Positions 3,416 to 46,405 of a stretch of 64,000 nt of DNA are shown here, piece after piece. The notes beneath the pieces are model-generated. The model searched no databases, was not told the DNA's origin, and was given only the letters and a program-made list of their open reading frames with translations. Numbering within the stretch: the stretch's first letter is position 1; the number at the start of each line of letters is the position of its first letter. The position numbers and the translations under genes were made by a program. The stretch is taken from positions 8,370,001-8,434,000 of the forward strand of contig OZ004609.1 of NCBI GenBank assembly GCA_963924565.1, written 5' to 3'. Origin of the DNA: Ascidiella aspersa. Lineage: Eukaryota.

Positions 3416-5731
3416 GTTGGGTAACTGGCACTCTTAATAAAAGGTATTCTCAATTGCACTTAGCGATGCGTAAATCTGTCTTTCTACTTTGACGTGGTGC
3501 GCAACACGGTTAGCCTTCTGCAGGATGCAATGATACTATTAAACGATGCATTTCTACTAATCAACTGTATTAGAAAATGTATGAGTGATTGAGCAAAACT
3601 AAGACCATTAGTAAAATGTACACCTTCTTTCCACACGTGGATACAAAAGTTCACTTCATGATAATTACAGACTGGATTTTGGTGGAGTCAATTTTTTATT
3701 TTTAAGGGTCAATTTTGTTTCAGATTTAACGACACTAGTAACGTCACAGCATATTGTTCTCGAACAAAAACGTTACCCCAAAATTGCATTTATTTAGTTA
3801 CTAGGGAACTTGTCAAGCAAAAAAAGCACCATTAATTCCACAACTGAATGACTGAACCTAAATTACGTAAAAAGTTCGCGCAAAGCGCTAAATAGCGTAC
3901 ATTGGGTGTTGCTTCAAAACTTGGGTGAACATTCATCTCGATACAATTTCAACGTTGAAAAGACGTTACAGATTAGCCCACACAGCAAAAAAGACTAGAT
4001 AATTCGGCAGAAGTTACAGTTTGTAGAAAGTTTGTATATACACAGGCCTACACTGTAGTAGTGTATATAAATTAAAACAATAAGAGTCTTTAAGATGACA
4101 GATTCCCTTCAAATGTTCTAAAATTTGTGCAAAATCGAGAAGAATATTCGCATAAATCGTTTTTATAGCATATACTTGCATGTATCAAAGAAATTATCTA
4201 TCTATAAATACAATTGTTTTCAGTCCTACACTACATTAACTGCAACATATATTCCATGTAAAATAATTACATAGAAGCAATGATATCATTTAGACGAGAG
4301 CAACTTACGTGTGACGCTACGGCAATTCAACCTCCTAGTAAGTATTGATTGTAGGCCTAACTTATGGTAATATTCTTTAGCGGATGTGTCCATTTTCGTT
4401 AATTTCGCGAATATGTATTTTTAAACGTGCCACCTGAAGGTTTGTTTACTGTTAGCTGGGTATATAAAATAAAGGTGGAAAGCAAAAACGAAGTTAAACA
4501 TTTTTTGGGACGTTGTTTATCTATTGTCCTTATTTTATCTTTAAAAACACCCCTGAAACCACACCTAACGACAGTCCATCTAAAAAAATAAAAACAATTG
4601 TTAAAAAAAGAGACTTATTTAACACGTTTATCCTATTTGAGCTTGTATTGGAGAAATATGAAAACATTGAAAGTCGTGTTGAAAGATTTACTGAGGTTGT
4701 AGCAGGGATCCTTCTTAACATTTTTCCGCGCAGGAGATTCACTACATTCGAAGGGTTTTAAGTTACCTTTACGAGTTTGTTTTACGATTATTACTAGCAT
4801 TAGTTATATGTTTTTTTGGCTTAAATAGGGTCCAACCAACACGTTTTATAATATATTCTTTGTTTGTACGGCTAACCGAATATACTATATAGTAACTCTA
4901 TTTAGGCACTAATATGTTTAAATAACAATTAGAAAACAGTCTATTTTCTATCGCCTAGGGCCCTATAGTTGTTTGCGTGGGCTCTAAGTAAAACAATGAC
5001 AATCAAGTGACAAGTATAAATAAAACACCTTTTGTTATTTCAAGAGTCAAATATAACTATAGCTTAAAATATTTAATTCCTTATGATTCGTGCTTAATAG
5101 TACTTTAAATAATGGTGGGACAAATATCTCTTCAAATCGTATATTCGACAATAAGAAAAAATAAATAGCCGGATTTGCAGGCGTGGAATTAAATTGCACT
5201 TTATCGGCAATTTAGGTGCTTTTTAAAACGGCTTTTTTAATAAACACCCGTATTCAGTCATGTATTACAAAGCAATAATGGACACTGAATTACGGATATC
5301 GCAGATCGCGTACGATGTTGATGTAAAAAATTCTTACTAAGTACATTGCGCGCACTTTTTCAGTCACCAATATTAATAATTAGCGTATATCAGCAAATGA
5401 TATATAGATCAGTAACAAATTCATGATTGAATGATATTTTAAACACGATTATAATAGATACGTTCGACCTCAAAATATTGGGCGATAAGGTGAAAAAATC
5501 AAGAGTCTTTAATATTGTTTACGTTGATGTAAGCCACAACAACCAATAAGAAAAAATTTTTCAAAAACATGGCACTAAAAGTTATGTATCGAATAGAATA
5601 GAGAAAAGTCATGTGTTGCTCTTCTAAGGTTTTAAACTTGGTCAGTTCAATTTTGTGTGCGAAGAAAAAAAAAGTTAAGGTGCATATTAAATTAAATCAA
5701 ATTAAAGCCCTGAATTTAATGTGTTACGCAG

Positions 5732-8700
5732 AATGCAAGGACAACGGAACTTCCAAAGTCGTCCGATTTGTTCGACCAATTGACTCGGGTTTGGACCAAA
5801 TCCTCCTAATGGAACTTGAGCAGGTGTTTGGTCAGGTCGCTAACGATCCGGTTGCCGTGTATTCGTTGGCTGGTGCGGTCGGCAAAGAGAAATCCTTCAT
5901 GCTCAACTTGTTTCTTCGCTACTTATGGTCGCAGAAGCAAGGAAAGGTAAGTTGGCTTCCAGAGATTGATCATGATAATGTATTATTTTGATTGATCATA
6001 ACTATTCCTTATTTACACCTTTTAATTAATATAGAAACAAAAAATAGACATGGGTACGAACAAAAACAAATCATTTGTGCCCGTAATAGTTCCCATTCTG
6101 TATACACCTAGAAATGTGGGTTTTAAACGTTGTAAAGAGGCGTGTTTACTATTCATAGGTGTATGTAGGAGTTAACCAGGCCCTAACAATCAACGATCCA
6201 ATCTGTATTGCGCTAATTTGAAGCTGTAAATGTAGCAAAAAATAGGTTTTAATCGCGAAGAATAATGCATGTATTTAGATCAGTGTTTCACATTCGCTTT
6301 TTGTTTGCGACTTTGCTGAATGAATTGGCTTCCAACCTTATCAGGGTTAAACTTGACCTTTTTTACACAGTTCAAAAATATATTTTAGCCTAATACGTGG
6401 CTTCACAACAAGGAAGAGCAGCTGGCAAGGTAACATTGTTAGTATATCAGTCCTGCAAATATCCATAATATGACAACACAGCATACCTGAAAAGTGGTTC
6501 ACGAATCGCATGGTAAAGTAGTCTGCAGACAATCGTGCCGCTAAATGTAATATGCCAGTTTACCAATTGCCAATTACCTTATCATATAATCCCTTCTCCA
6601 GGTCGCCTTGTTTCTCATGGATACGCAGGAAGCCTTCGACAGCTCCACTTCAGTAAAAGGCTGTTCCGTCATATTCGCTTTAAGCACGATGATAAGTTCC
6701 GTGCAAATCTACAATGTCATGGAGCAGATACAAGACGCCCTCGAGTATTTAGGGGTATAAGAATAATTAGGCCTAAAATTATTACAATAGATGTATTTTA
6801 GCCAGAAACTAATTCGCAATTGTTTGCCAGATATTCACGGACTACGGCAAAGCGGCCCACAAATGCAGCAGCCTGATCGCAAAACCTTTTCAGGTATGTT
6901 GTCAAAGCATTTTTCGCTCACAAAAATTGATCTAATTGACCGTTTTCTAAGAATTAGGTCATACCATTGATAAGACACAATGTGTTGAAACAAATATAAC
7001 CCTTCTGATCGTTGAAATAGATCAAATGCTATTTGCTTTTACCTACCTAGTGCTGTTTCCACAGGGTATTTTGCGACCTTAACAAGCAACTCTTAGTTTA
7101 CGACGTTACATCCAAAAGCTATATAGTGCAATGTTTAACAAATGGAAACATTTTAGAATCTACTGTTTCTGGTGCGAGATTGGCAGGACCCTGATTACGA
7201 CGTGAAATTGGACTGTCTCGACCCGTCGCACATTATTGGTTTGTTTTCGCCTCACAATGCCGCCATCCAGAGTGTTAACGGCAACATTGTAACGGGAAAA
7301 GCTCCCATCATTTTGAAGCTGGCTGACTTCAACGGCGTTGGAACTGGGAAAATGCCAGACGTCAGGACAATTTTGCAGGTTTTTTTCAATTGTTTCTTTT
7401 GACGAGAAAATGGCCACACAACATTTTTCGAACAACCGGGATGAAAAGCTGTATTCTAAATCGTCGGTCGGTTGATATGATTTCACTCTAGTGTAAAAAG
7501 TTTCGTTATTGACACTTAATTATCGCGAATGTTTGTCAAATGCAAAATTAGTCTAAATTTGAATTGAACTTCACAAAGCGACAACGTCACAAAGCCTAGT
7601 ATACATTTTGATAAAGGTTTGTTTATAATAACTAGGTTAAATAAGGCAAATGTAAACGATCTTCAATTCGTTTCATTCGGGGCAGTCCTTGGCCCTTTAT
7701 ATGAAATGCTTGTTGACCCCCTCGTCAAAAAATGTAAATTTTATGAAGGTTAACCACTTGAGGTAACTAAACTTGTTACATTTAAAGCCAAATATGGCCT
7801 AACAACCATAAAATATCACGTGTCGGACATCAATCAAGATAACCCTATGTGTACTTTGGCTTTTGCAAACGGTATGCAACGCAGAGGGAAAAAACTCCCA
7901 TGTTCCTTATCGCGTTTTTTTACTTTTTATTTTTTTTTTTTGCATTACTGTTAAGTTGGGTTTCAGTATATTTATACACCGCACGGTTTGCGGTATAAAC
8001 CTCCTAAAATAGAACATTAGAAAAAACAGACGTGTTGCCAATGTGTTTATACCAACGAAAACGACATCAACAGAATAAGTGATACTAATTACACCGCTTG
8101 AGTATTTCGTAAGGACTCCAGAATGAGACCTAAAAACGAACAATATCAACGTCAGAATAAAACACAGTTCGGAATAAGACAAAAATATGACTAATACCTG
8201 ATTTTGACTGAGACAAGAAAGTCTATACTGTTTTAATACCTAAGGGTCGTAATACCATATAAATCGGAATTAGTCGTAAATCCATGGAAATAAGAACCGT
8301 GGTTAGAATCAGGCTTGCAACCTTCTACAACCTTCCAAACCCCAAACCCACCTCTAAGAACATAACTAACTCCTCTAACAATTTTAACCATAACTGAATT
8401 TTCTAACCCCTACCATTATCCTCATTAAACCCAAAAAGGGAAAAAATTAAAAAAAGTAGAATCCTAACGGCGCCGTTCAAACTAAGCCGTCAAAATGTCC
8501 ACATCAAAACGTCCGGTGCCATACCGACTTTATTTTTTCGTATATTGTTTTGACGAAAATCCTTAAATAAATAAGAGTTTCTAAATTCTAATTAAAAAAT
8601 TAAAAAAATATTTTTAGGAACAACTTTATTACTACTTACAACGTACAAGCAATCATTATCTATTGTGCTTACTTTTGATGGTCAATTTTAAAAGAAATAA

Positions 8701-10739
8701 AACCTTACAAAGAAATCCTTTAATGTGATAAACAAACAATATATTTTCCAGAAACTAGCGGAAACCACTAAGATCTGGAATCAAGAACAGGCTCTCCGCG
8801 CATTATTGATGGATAAGGTAAATTAAAATTTTGTTTTATAGCTAACTGTTGTTTTTATGCCGTACCACCCGTCGTCTAGCAGATTGTTTTGCACTCTATG
8901 AAAAAAAATACGAGGTTATAGTAAACTATTGCGGACAAAATAATTACTGAAACTCTCATCGAAGATACACTTTTCCTGAGGTGTCGCGAGGAAAAGCGTT
9001 CGAGAACCACTTTTAAGAAAGTAGATTTAGCAATTTCGATAACAGGGTGTCCAATAAATGGTCCTCAAAAGATTGTGATTGCTACCTTCTACAACAGGAG
9101 CAAGCAATTTTTATAGGGGGTACATGAGTAATCGAAAATATGTTTAAGGGCAGACTCAAACAGGGAAATGACATGCACATTGACGATGATTACGTTTAAA
9201 TGAAAGGTGTACATGTTCTGATTGACAAAGTGGAAAACTAGGAATAGATTAGAATACCTTACAGGTGTAATTTTTGTATCAAATATTCCAAGTCTAATGA
9301 ATTTTGTGGAACATGAGCCGCAGGATTAAATTGATTTGCATGCCGGATTCAGCCGGCTCGACGTATTATTCTCAGGGCTTATGTGTATTCTTATTTGTGA
9401 TGTCGTTTACCAGTGGTCGGCAACCTTTTGCTGGTCGTGGGGCAAACCAACCTAAGCAAGTTCTCGGTGGGTCGTAATAAATTTCCACAAAAATTTTATT
9501 ATAAAAAAATTGTGGTTTCTAAGCACTCTGAATCGGGGTCAGACCTAAATGTTTTATGCAATTGAATACAAATATCTATATTGTACTAAAAAATTAAGAA
9601 CGCGTACAATGGTTGATTTTCCACTTGCTTCCGCTGAGGTTGTTTAGATCAGTTGGTAAAGAGCGACGATCCCGGTATGATCGAAGATCGTGAGTTCGAA
9701 CCTCACTGCAGATTATAGTTGTGTTCTAGCCTGGCCCTGCTTGTACTACAATTCTGATCTGGCTAACTGATTTCAGTAAGCTTTTTCGGAAGAATGTTTG
9801 TGCCTTTCTGTCTACAATGTTCGTGTTTTTTTAGTTTTACTTTTAACTCGCATAGTCTTAGCGTTGACCGGCGATTATAATATAGCATCCGTCTGTCAGT
9901 CACCATAAATAATCCATACGAGTATAATCGTTCCTCTCGATTCAAATATAGCGTTTGTAGCCATACCCAAACACCTCTTTAAGCTTTCGTAATAGAGTGA
10001 GGATCTTGCCCTTACAACCTTTGCACATTTGGTTTTTAAACTTCTTCAACACTACGAGACAAGTTGCACCACAGCCATGTTGGACAAACACAACATTCCT
10101 ATATGAACATACATTTCTATTTAAAAGTTTGCTTAATAATAATATACATATGTTTTAACGATATTTGTAAACGTTTTCGAAACGATGTCACGACGAAAGT
10201 CCTCAACCTTGTTTAAAAAGGTCTCAAAGGTGACAGAAATGGGCCGCGAACTTGGCCGAATTGAGGAATACACAATCGGTATCTCGATTTCCAAGAAAAG
10301 AATGTTCTATGAAATATGTGTGACCGGTCAGTCTCAGGACCAGCCGATTCCAAATGAAATCTTTGTAACAAGTGAAAGATTGGGGTACGTTTCAACTACA
10401 CTGTTACTGTTGTATGTAACGAAGTTATTATGTTTTATCAATAGCCTGCATTACATATTAACGGTTTTACATGTTTCATTGTTGATGCTTGTGTTTGCAA
10501 AGTAATGCAATCTCGACAATTCACAAACTTATATATCGGCTATTCTAAAATTTAGACGTGGGAAACAGCAATCTTTGGATATTGATCTTTGGAGCGATGA
10601 GGTTGATCTTTGCATCTTGGAAAACGGAAACGCGGTTGCCCGGGCAAAGCGCGGTAGCACCACTCTTCATAAGCGAATATGGATGGACTTGCGTGTAAAT
10701 GGGAAGCAGGCCAACAAGCGGGCATTCTATCTACAGTAA
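5732..10739 (+). CDS. Atlastin/GBP-family GTPase-like protein with degenerate G motifs and an unknown C-terminal domain (5' exon not found; may be a pseudogene)
   Basis: Phase-consistent exons: 5732-5946 ([26 protein letters not shown]), 6389-6429, possibly 6482-6512, 6602-6754 ([14 protein letters not shown]...[15 protein letters not shown]), 6831-6893 (IFTDYGK...KPFQ), 7157-7378 (LLFLVRDW...VNGNIVTG...MPDVRTILQ), 8752-8817, 10221-10384, 10556-10739 (TAA). These blocks match atlastin motifs from memory. Linkage of the last three exons is inferred from phase only. Confidence 0.65.
9645..9711 (+). mobile_element. tRNA-derived SINE-like head (5'-degenerate copy)
   Basis: TAGATCAGTTGGTAAAGAGC...GTGAGTTCGAACCTCACTGCAG contains A and B boxes. 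Highly similar to 41710-41784, including the downstream AGTTGT(G/T)TT..CTAG tail. Confidence 0.7.
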
Positions 10740-11631
10740 CAAAATTTAATCTAAAAAAGGAAATTGAGTTTTTTGTATGACATACAGTAACGATTTTTCA
10801 TTCTCAAATTTTCGTTTTGTCGTATTGTTTCAGCACATACATATATGTATAGTAGCCTACACACTAAGAAAGAAAGGCTTGATTTAAACTGTCGAAACTA
10901 TCAAGGATTTAAAAATTGTTTAGAAATAATATCCTATGCCTGTAATGATCGCTACTAAAAAAACTGTGAAGCCCTTGGCTGGAAGCGAAATACGACATAA
11001 ATGTATATATAATATCAACATATGTTTATTCAACTGTTGAATGGCCTGTATACACTTATATACTCATAAAATCTCAATGAGACGAACGAATAACAAAGTA
11101 ATTCCAAGGTTGTACACACGTCATGCCTACCAGGATTATAATTACTATCATTACCGTGTTCTGTAAAAATATGCATATCTGTTCATACTGTTACATTTGC
11201 ATGTATTTTAAATGCTTGTTTTTTCCTAACCTTTAATTGATTACATCGTTATTCGATGGATTCTGTTAGTCCATCGGGCCTTCCGTTTTACATGGTGTAA
11301 GATATCGTTATTATAATTTTCTGTGTACCATACGTCATGTATATTCAGTACATTTCAGCAAAGCATTTTATTAAACGTATATTTCCTTTTAAAATGTATT
11401 TCACAAAAAAAATCTTAATAATTTCTTTGCAATAGTTTTACCGCGGGTTTAAAATTTACTTAGTGATATTTACACGTTTTAACTAAAATCGAATATTTTA
11501 AAAGTGTGTTCCAACCTGTTATAATATTAAAGTTTATCATTCTGTTAAATTGTGACCTAATTATTGTTTTCACTTGTACAGGGTTAAACGTAGGGATTTC
11601 TGCGATTAATCTGACTGTTGTGAATGGTAAA

Positions 11632-13737
11632 ATGTCAGAAGAAAGGTAAAAATGAATTACGTGGTTTACATTAAAATTTAAATGCCGTTACACAACAAAA
11701 AAAATCAATCCTCTTTTCGTGGTAAATACATTTCTGATTGATCTCGTTGTTCTTGGTACATACATGTAGAAATTGTTTAGGTATTGACTGCAATCATTGG
11801 CTTTTATGTAAGTATTACCTTTATTTTTAGGAAGACCGATATCAGTATACTGGTCGCACCGGTGAAAGACGACGTCGCCACAATAAGATGCATATTTTCG
11901 CCTCGAAAGTGCAAAAATAGTAACAGCGAGGTCTACTGCCGAACTTTAGGATATAGGTTTGTAATAGCTTATCAGTAGCGCGATTATTTTTTGACTTGTC
12001 AAAAAAAGTTTAGAATTTTGTCAAAAATTGCTCGTTAGATCAAAATTTTTCAAAATCCGGGTAAAATCGATTAAAAATACATATAATGGCATACAAAATT
12101 AAAAAAATAAACTATATTCAGCTTTTTGAAATTGTCTTTTATTCAAAAAATAGTTTTGAATTAAATTCAATGACATATTAAGCGTATTAAATCTTTATTA
12201 AAATAATATACGATATACGCGAGACTGCAGTATTAAACACACCTGCCTGGTTTATAGCAATAAGTTCAGCTCGAACTTCGATTTTGCTTTATACAGTTGT
12301 GTAACTCTAATTTTGACCAATGTATGGAAAAATATTTGCTGTATTTTTTTGCTTGTGATATGCAAGTAACCCATTTTCTATTTCAAAAGTATACTATAGG
12401 TCTTTGTTAATATTTATTTTTACGTTGTAATTCAACTATTTACAAAGCGTTTTTTTAAACAGCCAGCGTCCTGTTTTTTTTAGTTGTTTGTCTTTTTAAG
12501 ATGACAAAAATATTAACCAACATTCTTATCAGGTTTTATTTAACCCGAAGTATAAATGATTTGTGTTCGACCAGTAGCCAGCAAAGCATCAAAACAATGT
12601 GGATAATACGCCAAGACACTAATACAGTACTTCAAACAGCAGTATGTTGTTTAAATCAATGTATACCTAATATATGTCAAAATCTAAAAAAAAAAAAAAA
12701 TTTCCGGTCAAATTTTGTCGAAAATTCCAATTTTTTAAGGTCAAAATTTCTCATTTTTTAGGTCAAAAAATAATCGCCCTACTTATCTTTACTTTCTAGT
12801 CTTTTTTCCATAGAAACGTTGGTTAGCGTACCTCTTTGTGCAGAGAAAACGACACCATTAAAATAAGGCTTGAAAGTAAGGAAGGCATTATAGATGAACC
12901 CAGCGAACAAACACTGCTGGGAAGAGAATTAGCGGGAAACCAAGAGGTCCAGTTCCGCATATCTCTTTCCGACGCATCTTCAGCACATCAGATGCGAATC
13001 TCTATTAATATGGTCAAAAACCCGTGTCATTCTCGGAGCGCTATTTTTTATCTGCCTCCTGCACAAGGTGAATTGTTATTTTCCGACTATATCTAGCAAA
13101 TGTTTAAGTAAATCAACGGTCATTGAATACAAATGTGGACCACGAAAACATTTGCAACTACACAGCAGCGCAGTGGTTCTCAAACTATTTTGGGTCGCGG
13201 AACACTAAAAAATCGTAGATATTTCGCGGCACACTTTTAACAGCACAACAATATAGAGTAATTTCACAATCGCCCGTTAACACACGACAAATTACATTTA
13301 AATCTGTCAATATTATTGATTTGTAATAAATAGTGCGTATTTAAGTATATGAAATGCTTGTGTGTATGTCTTTTTGTAATACAAATACTTTATTTTCCAA
13401 ATTACAAAGTTTTACGGTACACTTGACAATCTCACTAGGCACACTAGTATTTTGGGGAATCACTGCAGTGGCGTAACTACATAAGTCCAGAAAATTTAAG
13501 AAATCGCATGTTATTTTTGAAACGACGCATATCGGCATACTCACACTTGAGATATTAGCTGCTTTACGCAAATAATTTAGTTTTAGTAAAACAAAATTGT
13601 TGTGTTTTATTTTGTGTTTTTTTATTATATATGGAGAAGCAGACGTCGCTAACAAATTCGTCATCAATGCACAGACTTGTTCGTTTTATGTGGATTCTGA
13701 TGGACCTGGTCCTCAACCAGTTGGCACTCCGGATTAA
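11632..13737 (+). CDS. Small uncharacterised spliced gene (~150 aa)
   Basis: Phase-consistent GT-AG exons: 11632-11645 (MSEER; the frame is also open back to the acceptor at 11581), 11831-11956, 12844-13067, 13637 or 13643-13737 (TAA). Product MSEERKTDISILVAPVKDDVATIRCIFSP...RSAIFYLPPAQ...KFVINAQTCSFYVDSDGPGPQPVGTPD*. No family recognised. Confidence 0.55.
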
Positions 13738-22400: not shown

Positions 22401-22828
22401 AAAATATCACAACAACCCTAAAACTAGATATCTGACATTTAATTAAATTAAAAATTATGTAAAAATAACAATTATTGTTGGTATATAACAGCCATGTTAT
22501 ATTGCAATTTGTAAAATAGTAAAATTTAAACACTTTTAGCCTACCTTGTGACATAAACTTTAATAAACCAACTTTCTTAAAAGCTAAGCCTGTTTTTTCA
22601 CCATTGTGTTACAGGTACGCTGGATACAGCTTTATCTCCGTTCTTCTTCAATCTGTTTTTATCGGCTGCTTGGGTGCAGACCGCTTCACTCTCGGCTACA
22701 CAGGCCGTGGTATCGGAAAGCTCATATCACTAGGTGGTGTGGGTGTTTGGTGGTTCATAGACATCATACTCCTGCTGACCGGAGAGCTTGTACCAGCAGA
22801 TAACAGCGATTGGAACATTTATTACTGA
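19409..22828 (+). CDS. TM2D2: TM2 domain-containing protein 2
   Basis: Exons 19409-19569, 20399-20483, 22079-22200, 22615-22828. Signal peptide, then NPYSPLIQCNLLPSEFVVCD, TSVYCHVVDKTIECAGNRTF...PCLKY, and TM2 domain FIGCLGADRFTLGYTGRGIGKLISLGGVGVWWFIDIILLLTG. Confidence 0.93.
21159..21656. mobile_element. hAT (Charlie/Buster-type) MITE in TM2D2 intron 2
   Basis: TIRs CAGTGGTTCTCAAA / TTTGAGAACCACTG; 8-bp TSD TACTACAT / TACTGCAT. Confidence 0.8.
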
Positions 22829-22849
22829 ACTGTTAGCAGCTCAGGAAAT

Positions 22850-23842
22850 ATGTCGCTGCTAGAAGATAAGAAACTGGTCGATGTGTTTAACGACGTTTGG
22901 GAAATGCACCACCAAATAATCAACAACACAGAGGGTTCTGCTTCAGATAAGATTCAGCAAATCGTAAACGATGCACTTGGCCTGCTGCGGCTTCTGTCTG
23001 ACAGCGTTGAGCAGCTTGGTCTGTTCAGCAGAAACGAAGACCTGGAAGAAATGGTGACCTCCGACCTTCGCTATTTTCTACTTCCGGCCATAACTGCCGA
23101 TGTAACGTCTCACAAAAAGTGTGACATCCAGCAACGCCTTGCACTTCTCACCGACTGCCGCAAACACTTTACCAAGTTTTTGAAATCGTGCCAGAGCTAC
23201 GGATTTGAGCCTCTCGATGCGATAGAGCGTGCCCTCGGTCCACCAACAACAAACCCTGAAAGCAAGGTTATAGTCGGAGGGTCGTCGAAACCTGACGTCC
23301 AAGCGATGTCGACTGCCCGCGACGCAAAAATTAAGAACTACCAGTTGGAAAGGTCAAGGATTAAGAAGCTAAAAGATCTAGAAGCCAGACTGGAGGACGA
23401 AGGAGCCTGCCGGGAATACTGGATGCTGCAGATCCAACAGTGGATCACAACCGCCCTTAAAGAGATGTCAAGCATGCAAGGTGAGCTCAGCATGCTCGAA
23501 CAAATGCGCAACGTGCCGCGAGCCGACTTCGAGCAGGAAAGACAAGAGGCGAGAAAGGGTTCTGGCGTTAAGCCCTTCATGTTGACCAAAGACAAAATGC
23601 AAGCGGCCGTTTTCGGCGCCGGTTATCCGAGCGTGCCCACCGTCACTTTGGAAGAATTCTTTGAGCGCGAGGCCGCGGCTTGCCTCACTCAACAGGCAGC
23701 CAAGGCGCCCCAACCGAACTTAAACGGCGAGAAAGACAGCAGCGACGATGAAACGGAAGAAAAGCTGATGAAACAAAGAGCGATGGACGATTGGAAAGAC
23801 GACCATCGAAGGGGAGCCGGGAATCGCAAAAACATGGGATAA
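22850..23842 (+). CDS. IGBP1: Immunoglobulin-binding protein 1 / alpha4 (TAP42 family PP2A regulator), intronless
   Basis: 330-aa ORF with LGLFSRNEDLEEMVTSDLRYFLLPA, ARDAKI, VFGAGYPSVPTVTLEEF and C-terminal RAMDDWKDDHRRGAGNRKNMG, all characteristic of the TAP42 family. Confidence 0.96.
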   Translation: MSLLEDKKLVDVFNDVWEMHHQIINNTEGSASDKIQQIVNDALGLLRLLSDSVEQLGLFSRNEDLEEMVTSDLRYFLLPAITADVTSHKKCDIQQRLALLTDCRKHFTKFLKSCQSYGFEPLDAIERALGPPTTNPESKVIVGGSSKPDVQAMSTARDAKIKNYQLERSRIKKLKDLEARLEDEGACREYWMLQIQQWITTALKEMSSMQGELSMLEQMRNVPRADFEQERQEARKGSGVKPFMLTKDKMQAAVFGAGYPSVPTVTLEEFFEREAAACLTQQAAKAPQPNLNGEKDSSDDETEEKLMKQRAMDDWKDDHRRGAGNRKNMG

Positions 23843-45054: not shown

Positions 45055-45519
45055 TCAGTGGAAGCCGTTGACGATTGCCACCGGAGTTTCGAGACAGGCG
45101 ATCATGTTGCCGCCCTCCTTCTTATCCTTTAGCATCCATTGGACGACCAAATCAATGTCGGGATAGCTTTTAAGAACCGAGATAGAGGTCGTGTAGCTGT
45201 ACATGGCGCCGTTCTTGAGGGGGCAAGTCAGTCCGCTGTCCATGCAGGCGTTGGGCTGATCTATCGGAAAAGGCACGGAAACGCCGCTAATGATACCGTT
45301 AATTGCAGAGTGCGCCTCGTCGGAATCTTCCAGCATCTTGAACGTGGCTTTAATGGTGTACTTCTGGCCCTTCATTAGTTTACAGGGGCTCATAGTGCAA
45401 GGAGCTAGCGTGACATTGGTCAGCTTGCCCACCTTGGAGCCGCAGTCCTTGTATGTAATGTCGGCGCGCGCCGTCGCTAGCACGAAGGCGGCCGCCAGGA
45501 GAGTACAAAGCAACTTCAT
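45055..45519 (-). CDS. NPC2: NPC intracellular cholesterol transporter 2 (ML-domain protein), intronless CDS
   Basis: 154 aa: signal peptide, YKDCGS, PC...PC.L.KG, GVSVPFP...NAC..SGLTCPL..G..YSY, V.KSYP...LVVQW.LKD, six conserved Cys. Confidence 0.93.
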   Translation of the reverse strand: MKLLCTLLAAAFVLATARADITYKDCGSKVGKLTNVTLAPCTMSPCKLMKGQKYTIKATFKMLEDSDEAHSAINGIISGVSVPFPIDQPNACMDSGLTCPLKNGAMYSYTTSISVLKSYPDIDLVVQWMLKDKKEGGNMIACLETPVAIVNGFH

Positions 45520-46405
45520 TTTTGCTATTGATGTTGATGCTTTTTAGCGCTACTGGAAACCTGAAATAGTTAGATACAAACGAACGATCATCAGCGAGAG
45601 ACTCAAACCACACAACCGGGTTATTATCAATGAATACGGGAAAACAAAAGCAGTATAACTACATTTAAACTGACAACAAATTTGTTTTTATTTACTAAGC
45701 GTTTGGCCCACAAGTAATTGCTTTCCTGTTATATCTGGATTTTGTCACCATACAAAGTAGGCTACATTAAATCACTTTGCATCAGTTTTGAAATGCTAAT
45801 TGCAATAACTGAACTTTTTTGTGCCCCATGCAACAGTCATTGCTCCAATGTCTTGCCTAGGTTGACTAACGACCTGCGACTAAAGTGATAGCACCCACCA
45901 GGTACGACGCAGTATTTCCGTGTGTGCATAGCGAACACCCTTTACTGCCACCAGCGTACGCTTGTTCTAAACAACAACACGGAAAAATCATAGTCGTCCC
46001 GCAATTATTAAAAACTAATAAAATCAGTGTAATTATTGAATGCTATAAACAATGGTTAAAACAGATTACTTAACTTATAAATAAACTAACTGTAAAATTG
46101 TGGTTGTAAATTCCATTTATTTCTATAAAAACAAAATGTTTTAAAACTTTAGCGCATGTATGGAAAGGAGACGAAGGATTTTATCGTTAATAGTTTGAAT
46201 CAAGCTTCTGCCTTTCTGCCTTGTAAAGAAAAAGAATTATAAAAAAGATCCAAAATGGCAACCTATTTTCTCAACAATGCAAAATAGGGAAAGCCCCTGT
46301 TATAGTGTTATTAACACGTCACTCATAAATTCAAAGTATTTTGTTTTGGCGTATATAATTAAATGTTTAGGCGTACATTGAAACTTTCCTAGGAAACACA
46401 ATACG
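45520..46405. promoter_or_regulatory. Probable bidirectional promoter/outron region between divergent NPC2 and STX18
   Basis: Start codons are 886 bp apart, head-to-head. Splice-acceptor-like TTTCAG on the minus strand (45566-45561) and CCTAG on the plus strand (ending 46392) lie just upstream of each ATG. Inferred from geometry only. Confidence 0.5.

Follow-up and report, generated by a model that had tools for sequence, protein, structure and literature searches.

Our studies of a 64,000-nucleotide stretch of the Ascidiella aspersa genome (the window, C3:8370001-8434000, in a genome of 309 Mb and 75 contigs) have shown that two small neighbouring genes, which we call A and B, occur as a pair both in the window and on C5, another chromosome contig. 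Purifying selection acts between A and its C5 counterpart, A′. In the window, a damaged copy of a GBP/atlastin-like GTPase lies upstream of A and is connected to it by one spliced joint. The explanation that we favour, with fair confidence, is that A and B are small orphan genes conserved as a pair at two loci, that they likely arose long ago by tandem duplication of one predicted beta-sandwich domain and are likely co-transcribed, and that here the last exon of a young, deletion-bearing GBP-like copy is spliced into A, with the copy likely serving as a leader or passenger only. An initial annotation of this DNA had described one lineage-specific domain, both fused to a GTPase and free, and had likened the arrangement to innate-immune sensor/adaptor pairs. 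The degenerate upstream GTPase and the fused transcript were borne out and a common domain is likely, but the sensor/adaptor comparison was not supported. The C5 pair is without a GTPase, domain A is absent from the 10-20 kb downstream of each of the 14 GBP-like paralogue loci examined, genome searches return just 2 places for the A exon, the GTPase is young and near-neutral, and A possesses an ATG of its own. Since the pair stands on another chromosome without the GTPase, the fusion most likely reflects a decaying copy that recently captured A, and not an immune sensor-adaptor system.

The A-B pair on C3 and C5

The genome is one of short A+T-rich introns and near-abutting genes. The features of A and B in the window are as follows (X3 is a run discussed below).

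10221-10384, + strand: exon 1 of domain/gene A; in-frame ATG of A at 10239; phase-2 donor
10556-10738, + strand: exon 2 of domain/gene A; holds the stop; shares 64% identity with its paralogue on C5
10739-11581, + strand: stretch from A to B; X3 depth ~110-240 versus ~12-18 in the adjoining introns; likely a long 3′ untranslated region or a co-transcribed link
11582-11645, + strand: probable first exon of gene B, predicted, with no joint seen; ATG at 11632; phase-2 donor
11831-11956, + strand: exon 2 of gene B; phase-2 donor
12844-13067, + strand: exon 3 of gene B; phase-1 donor; shares 32% identity with its paralogue on C5
13640-13737, + strand: last exon of gene B; holds the stop; acceptor possibly 13637, 13640 or 13643

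The coding length of A is 115 codons over two exons, and its ATG at 10239 matches that of A′. Predicted gene B joins 11632-11645, 11831-11956, 12844-13067 and 13640-13737 to encode 153 amino acids; an ATG at 11256 was rejected as its start, being in the wrong phase and within a region that is continuous in X3. The internal introns of both genes are GT-AG and in phase 2. Inspection by eye revealed no evident signal peptide in A or B, and both are likely cytosolic binding modules. High-copy short repeats of very high X1 and X2 depth lie within introns at window positions ~8060-8200, 9660-9710, 11968-12320, 12500-12790 and 13170-13450, and one intronic high-copy repeat recurs, inverted, at the C5 locus just upstream of A′.

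When the genome was searched with exon 2 of A, one other place was found, and this was on C5. There, A′ is a 106-residue frame whose ATG lies 12 bases past an acceptor and whose intron is the same as that of A. B′ follows ~1.4 kb downstream on the same strand, with exon phases matching those of B; its first coding exon could not be fixed. The order (A′ then B′), strand and intron phases are those of the C3 pair. Identity amounts to 54/103 residues between A and A′ (z 48) and 38/124 between B and B′ (z 18). The ratio of nonsynonymous to synonymous divergence (dN/dS) between A and A′ is 0.28 at a synonymous divergence (dS) of ~1.5, and synonymous sites between B and B′ are saturated. Taken together, the divergence of both genes from their C5 counterparts, the dN/dS of A and A′ and the shared order indicate that both genes are old, that A is constrained and that the pair was copied as a unit. 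The 70 kb around the C5 pair contain no GBP exon and none of the TM2, IGBP1 and ML-domain genes of the window, so the A-B pair is all that the two loci have in common. No third copy of A or B was found in the fetched DNA (314 kb and a further 90 kb) or in genome searches, which were non-exhaustive. A mucin-like membrane gene with a possible SEA domain (by eye; Pfam matches are weak) converges on the C5 pair (L025:8518-9951, - strand).

Transcription was assessed in run X3, which we took as RNA based on its spliced joints and on an exon depth ~10x the intron depth. Depth in X3 is continuous at 110-240 from the stop of A to the first exon of B. Because of this, and because intercistronic DNA is mostly absent from Ciona operons according to PMC1488885, A and B are likely co-transcribed. 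The raw reads from X4, ~6/100 of that run, gave no depth in the bins that hold A exons.

A damaged GTPase copy spliced into A

The GBP/atlastin-like remnant upstream of A consists of the following pieces.

5719-5946, + strand: first recognisable coding exon; weak PF02263 match; P-loop GAVGKEKS; true start uncertain, an acceptor at 5731 suggesting a further upstream exon
6389-6429, + strand: 41-base remnant of a 132-base G2 (switch I) exon; both splice sites retained; a frameshift and a stop at codon 108 if included
6602-6754, + strand: remnant exon with G3 DTQE; PF02263 E 7e-15; in-frame 3-base deletion
6831-6893, + strand: remnant exon; X3 contigs and 2 X4 reads, possibly from paralogues, carry a GT..AG joint 6891->7155
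7157-7378, + strand: two ancestral exons joined in frame by a ~600-base deletion; G4 RDW retained (7157-7195)
8752-8817, + strand: final exon left in the remnant, of paralogue-tail origin; 6 bases deleted in frame; its donor is joined to domain A by splicing

Descent from the GBP/atlastin-like family is indicated by the PF02263 match and by homology to intact members. The GTPase motifs themselves are damaged. The G1 P-loop reads GAVGKEKS, which departs from GxxxxGKS, versus GAFRKGKS in 6/6 compared paralogues, and G3 reads DTQE, which departs from DxxG, versus DTQG in paralogues; in both motifs a glycine has become glutamate. The G2 segment is missing, with 91/132 bases of its exon deleted, and the RD motif of G4 is present as RDW. 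The remnant DNA is 69-88% identical, introns included, to paralogues at C3 7.67-7.79 Mb; this similarity ends at 9411, and most tail exons have been lost. Its dS from the paralogues is 0.19-0.33, which makes it much younger than the A-A′ split. Of the changes on the remnant branch, across 140 codons, 34 are nonsynonymous and 11 synonymous, which gives a dN/dS of 0.86, compared with 0.17-0.23 for paralogue pairs and 0.25-0.28 for paralogue branches. Purifying selection on the dead domain was not detected by a Fisher test against neutrality (p 0.70), the power of which is limited at 140 codons. Judged from its sequence, the upstream GTPase is a recent copy of a GBP/atlastin-like gene that has been gutted and evolves near-neutrally on its branch.

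The first exon of the GTPase has 47 genome matches, itself included. The ~46 others are clustered on C1, C2, C3 and C6, with ~18 of them within 0.4 Mb at C6:27.0-27.4 Mb, and the family forms a sizeable expansion whose listed members have long, apparently helical repeat tails; by eye, the six listed paralogues run on into such repeats where further exons were seen.

The splice from the GTPase to A was observed in one X3 contig (8813->10219, depth 64). Skipping of the 41-base exon leaves 359 open codons that run into A. By rough estimate, X3 covers the last GTPase exon to a depth of 170-210, exon 1 of A to ~170 and exon 2 of A to 280.

Based on these observations, we propose that an old tandem duplication would have produced A and B, and that the pair would then have been copied from one of C3 and C5 to the other. 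At a much later time, an incomplete duplicate of a GBP-like gene, probably derived from the cluster 0.6-0.7 Mb away, would have been placed upstream of the C3 pair and then have decayed. As the 3′ end of the copy was lost, its last donor presumably took the next acceptor, A's own. The remnant would supply at most a promoter and an in-frame leader, and a leader role would explain why the frame was kept while the amino acids were free to change. A and B may work together as a cytosolic protein-binding pair, perhaps as a heterodimer; this is a tentative suggestion, and it would explain duplication and retention of the two as a unit.

Several observations speak against a remnant that is only a leader or passenger. 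The surviving exons are without a stop codon (neutral chance 0.05-0.14), and 3/4 of the coding indels are in frame, which hints at selection on the frame. The last GTPase exon and exon 1 of A have similar depths, so most A transcripts in the X3 sample may be of the fused form; X3 itself is not recorded as RNA. At P-loop positions 5878, 5881 and 5888, X1-X3 hold paralogue-type letters only, so the P-loop changes may be private to this assembly and the allele may vary, or their contigs may have been missed. The open frame with exon 2 skipped, the lack of stops and the in-frame indels would also suit a young functional chimeric gene, in which a dead GBP-like fold plus domain A regulates active GBP paralogues or recruits B, in keeping with the sensor/adaptor idea. 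The spliced joint into A, the similar rough X3 depth of both parts and the other GBP-like first-exon matches, which are possible partners, point the same way, as does Arabidopsis GBPL1, described in PMC10473214 as a pseudo-GTPase that sequesters GBPL3. Set against this chimera are the dN/dS of the remnant branch, the deletion of core fold elements, which would make a stable domain doubtful, and the exon-2 remnant, which retains its splice sites and yields the early stop. A second GTPase-A fusion was found neither by genome searches nor at the 14 paralogue loci, and the A-B pair on C5 stands without a GTPase. We consider a functional chimera very unlikely. Marginally less probable again is a newborn chimeric immune regulator, in which the dead GBP-like fold and the undescribed beta-sandwich domain would couple the expanded GBP-like family to an older, lineage-unique A-B adaptor pair.

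Relationship and fold of A and B

The initial annotation had aligned A (exons 10221-10384 and 10556-10738) with B (exons 11831-11956 and 12844-13067) by eye. The peptides it quoted, the exons and the phase-2 introns are all present, but the likeness in its register is matched by shuffled sequences (global BLOSUM45 z 1.9, 264/5000 shuffles; BLOSUM62 z 1.46, 459/5000). The best local A-B match (z 2.75, 106/5000 shuffles) lies in a different register and relies on residues that A′ is without, and a hidden Markov model of A plus A′ scored 1.8 bits on B (30/2000 shuffles), again in the other register. Global profile-profile comparison of A with B gave a score that 0/500 column shuffles reached (z 3.66), and z was 2.0-3.8 across three trimmings and three block sizes (0 to 10 of 250). 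The claim of a common intron position was upheld in part. Both introns are in phase 2, and alignment on 'LG' puts them 2 codons apart, but anchoring on an aromatic residue upstream makes them coincide in 4/4 family members, where they lie 7 codons past F/F/Y/F; a 2-residue gap is required just beyond. The rough chance of such a shared offset is 0.01-0.02.

The evidence does not all agree with a common origin. Local profile-profile comparison with the C5 paralogues included was at chance (502/1000 and 402/1000; hhalign P 0.054, probability 1%), its top segment being that of the initial annotation. One trimming of the global comparison scored below its reversed profile (-13.8 vs -10.8), and the domain boundaries were chosen by us. 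Moreover, the A-B global score was reached by 7/174 and 23/178 decoy profiles, for which segments of three unrelated bacterial repeat proteins were used. Since decoys sometimes score as high, homology of A and B through a common lineage-restricted domain is likely, not proven. If A and B were instead unrelated small beta-rich neighbours whose likeness is generic strand alternation, this would account for pairwise and local profile tests at chance, for decoys that equal the global score in 4% and 13% of cases, and for the 13-residue insertion in B that the alignment requires. It would account less readily for an intron phase and an offset from the aromatic residue that are the same in 4/4 genes, for the similar length and an end-to-end alignment that beats block shuffles, or for the tandem same-strand arrangement at two loci. 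We therefore regard unrelated origins as unlikely and favour homology.

For the fold, only single exons were modelled (mean predicted local distance difference test scores of 49.7 and 48.9), and the models are mostly strand. Foldseek with the B exon model returned no match at E 0.001. The same low-confidence model gave generic Ig-like rows (best Z 5.6, root-mean-square deviation 2.7, 73 aligned), where a Z <8 is non-specific according to the tool. We also considered a likeness to the UPA domain. On this view A and B would have arisen from the UPA domain of ZU5-UPA proteins (ankyrin, UNC5, PIDD), would stand alone without a helix and would serve as UPA-type adaptors, an idea that concerns the fold and is compatible with the explanation that we favour. 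Comparisons were made with the UPA of this genome's ankyrin and with a second local model, which was crudely pieced together. Size and all-beta pattern are similar, B and B′ end in aromatic-LPP while the ankyrin UPA ends in LPP (by eye), and global profile scores against the two models were weak (z 1.9 and 1.55, the second with the crude model). In contrast, Pfam UPA was matched by none of the exons used as half-domain queries, all 16 pairwise tests against these two models gave z <=1.5, and no UPA chain was among the fold matches listed for the low-confidence model. Derivation from UPA thus appears quite unlikely. ZU5 itself has 4 matches in the genome, on C2, C4 and C9, with none at either A-B pair, so A and B do not follow ZU5. 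A ZU5-UPA gene resembling ankyrin lies at C4:6.38 Mb (L061); one of its exons is very long, L062 being one open frame of ~10 kb. A further ZU5 gene, at C9:9.91 Mb (L063), has by eye a likely death domain.

Searches for homologues all used single exons, that is half domains, so their blanks are weak. Pfam held no family for any scanned exon of A, A′, B or B′. Longer homologous proteins were confirmed in 0/25 candidates for B exon 3, 0/12 for A exon 2 and 0/364 for the A′ plus B′ exons, and 0/136 and 0/578 pattern matches were confirmed in metagenome contigs. PF17217 was unmatched in the genome, where its controls were silent as well. Candidates that we rejected were three HMMER matches of B exon 3 among 1.84 billion representatives, all of them long repeat proteins whose score summed short stretches; ESM Atlas matches of 0.85 and 0.82 at best, with low recognition; and matches to PDB sequences with best E values of 0.063, 0.0082 (ankyrin repeats, summed fragments) and 0.25. 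Literature searches, at the level of listings, returned nothing on the A/B domain or on such a GTPase fusion; the 'GBP' matches in PMC10542563 are gigabase pairs.

Significance and likeness to known systems

By searches of Pfam, PDB sequences, two large protein collections, ESM Atlas and metagenome contigs, A and B look like members of a small domain family not described before, which has stayed together as a linked pair at both loci; their domain is a fair structural target. The locus also illustrates capture of a neighbouring gene's first exon by a duplicate in decay, a process that is already known, as are orphan pairs restricted to one lineage. A functional fusion would amount to a very young chimera with a pseudo-GTPase, and the evidence leans against this.

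Elsewhere in the window lie an ML-domain (NPC2-like) gene with a single open reading frame (45055-45543, - strand; PF02221, E 3e-24) and exons of an M17 leucine aminopeptidase-like gene (34470-35278, + strand). An intronless TAP42/IGBP1 gene has its ATG 21 bases after the stop of a TM2-domain gene (22523-23842, + strand), which is an operon-like spacing.

The A-B pair resembles the operons of Ciona that are resolved by a spliced leader, in that same-strand neighbours are transcribed across the gap between them. No spliced leader or poly(A) junction was seen at A-B, where the sign is continuous X3 depth. Similar to the Arabidopsis GBPL1/GBPL3 circuit (PMC10473214), there is here a dead GBP-like protein beside active relatives; in contrast to it, the copy in the window is young, has been gutted and evolves near-neutrally on its branch. 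With regard to fold, A and B share with UPA and Ig/FN3-like beta-sandwich domains a length of ~105-120 residues and a predicted all-beta structure, and the low-confidence exon model is Ig-like; however, they have no significant sequence or fold match to these domains. Compared with GBP/atlastin-like GTPases (PF02263), the remnant has one exon matching at E 7e-15 and is a close copy of intact paralogues that carry GAFRKGKS, DTQG and RDW, but it differs in its G1 and G3 glutamates, in the loss of most of its G2 exon and tail, and in ending in domain A. Young chimeric genes of the jingwei/Sdic type arise when a duplicate captures a neighbour's exons. Although the captured GTPase part here bears no sign of amino-acid selection and its protein product is putative, the window resembles those genes in that a recent partial duplicate has become spliced to an older resident gene.

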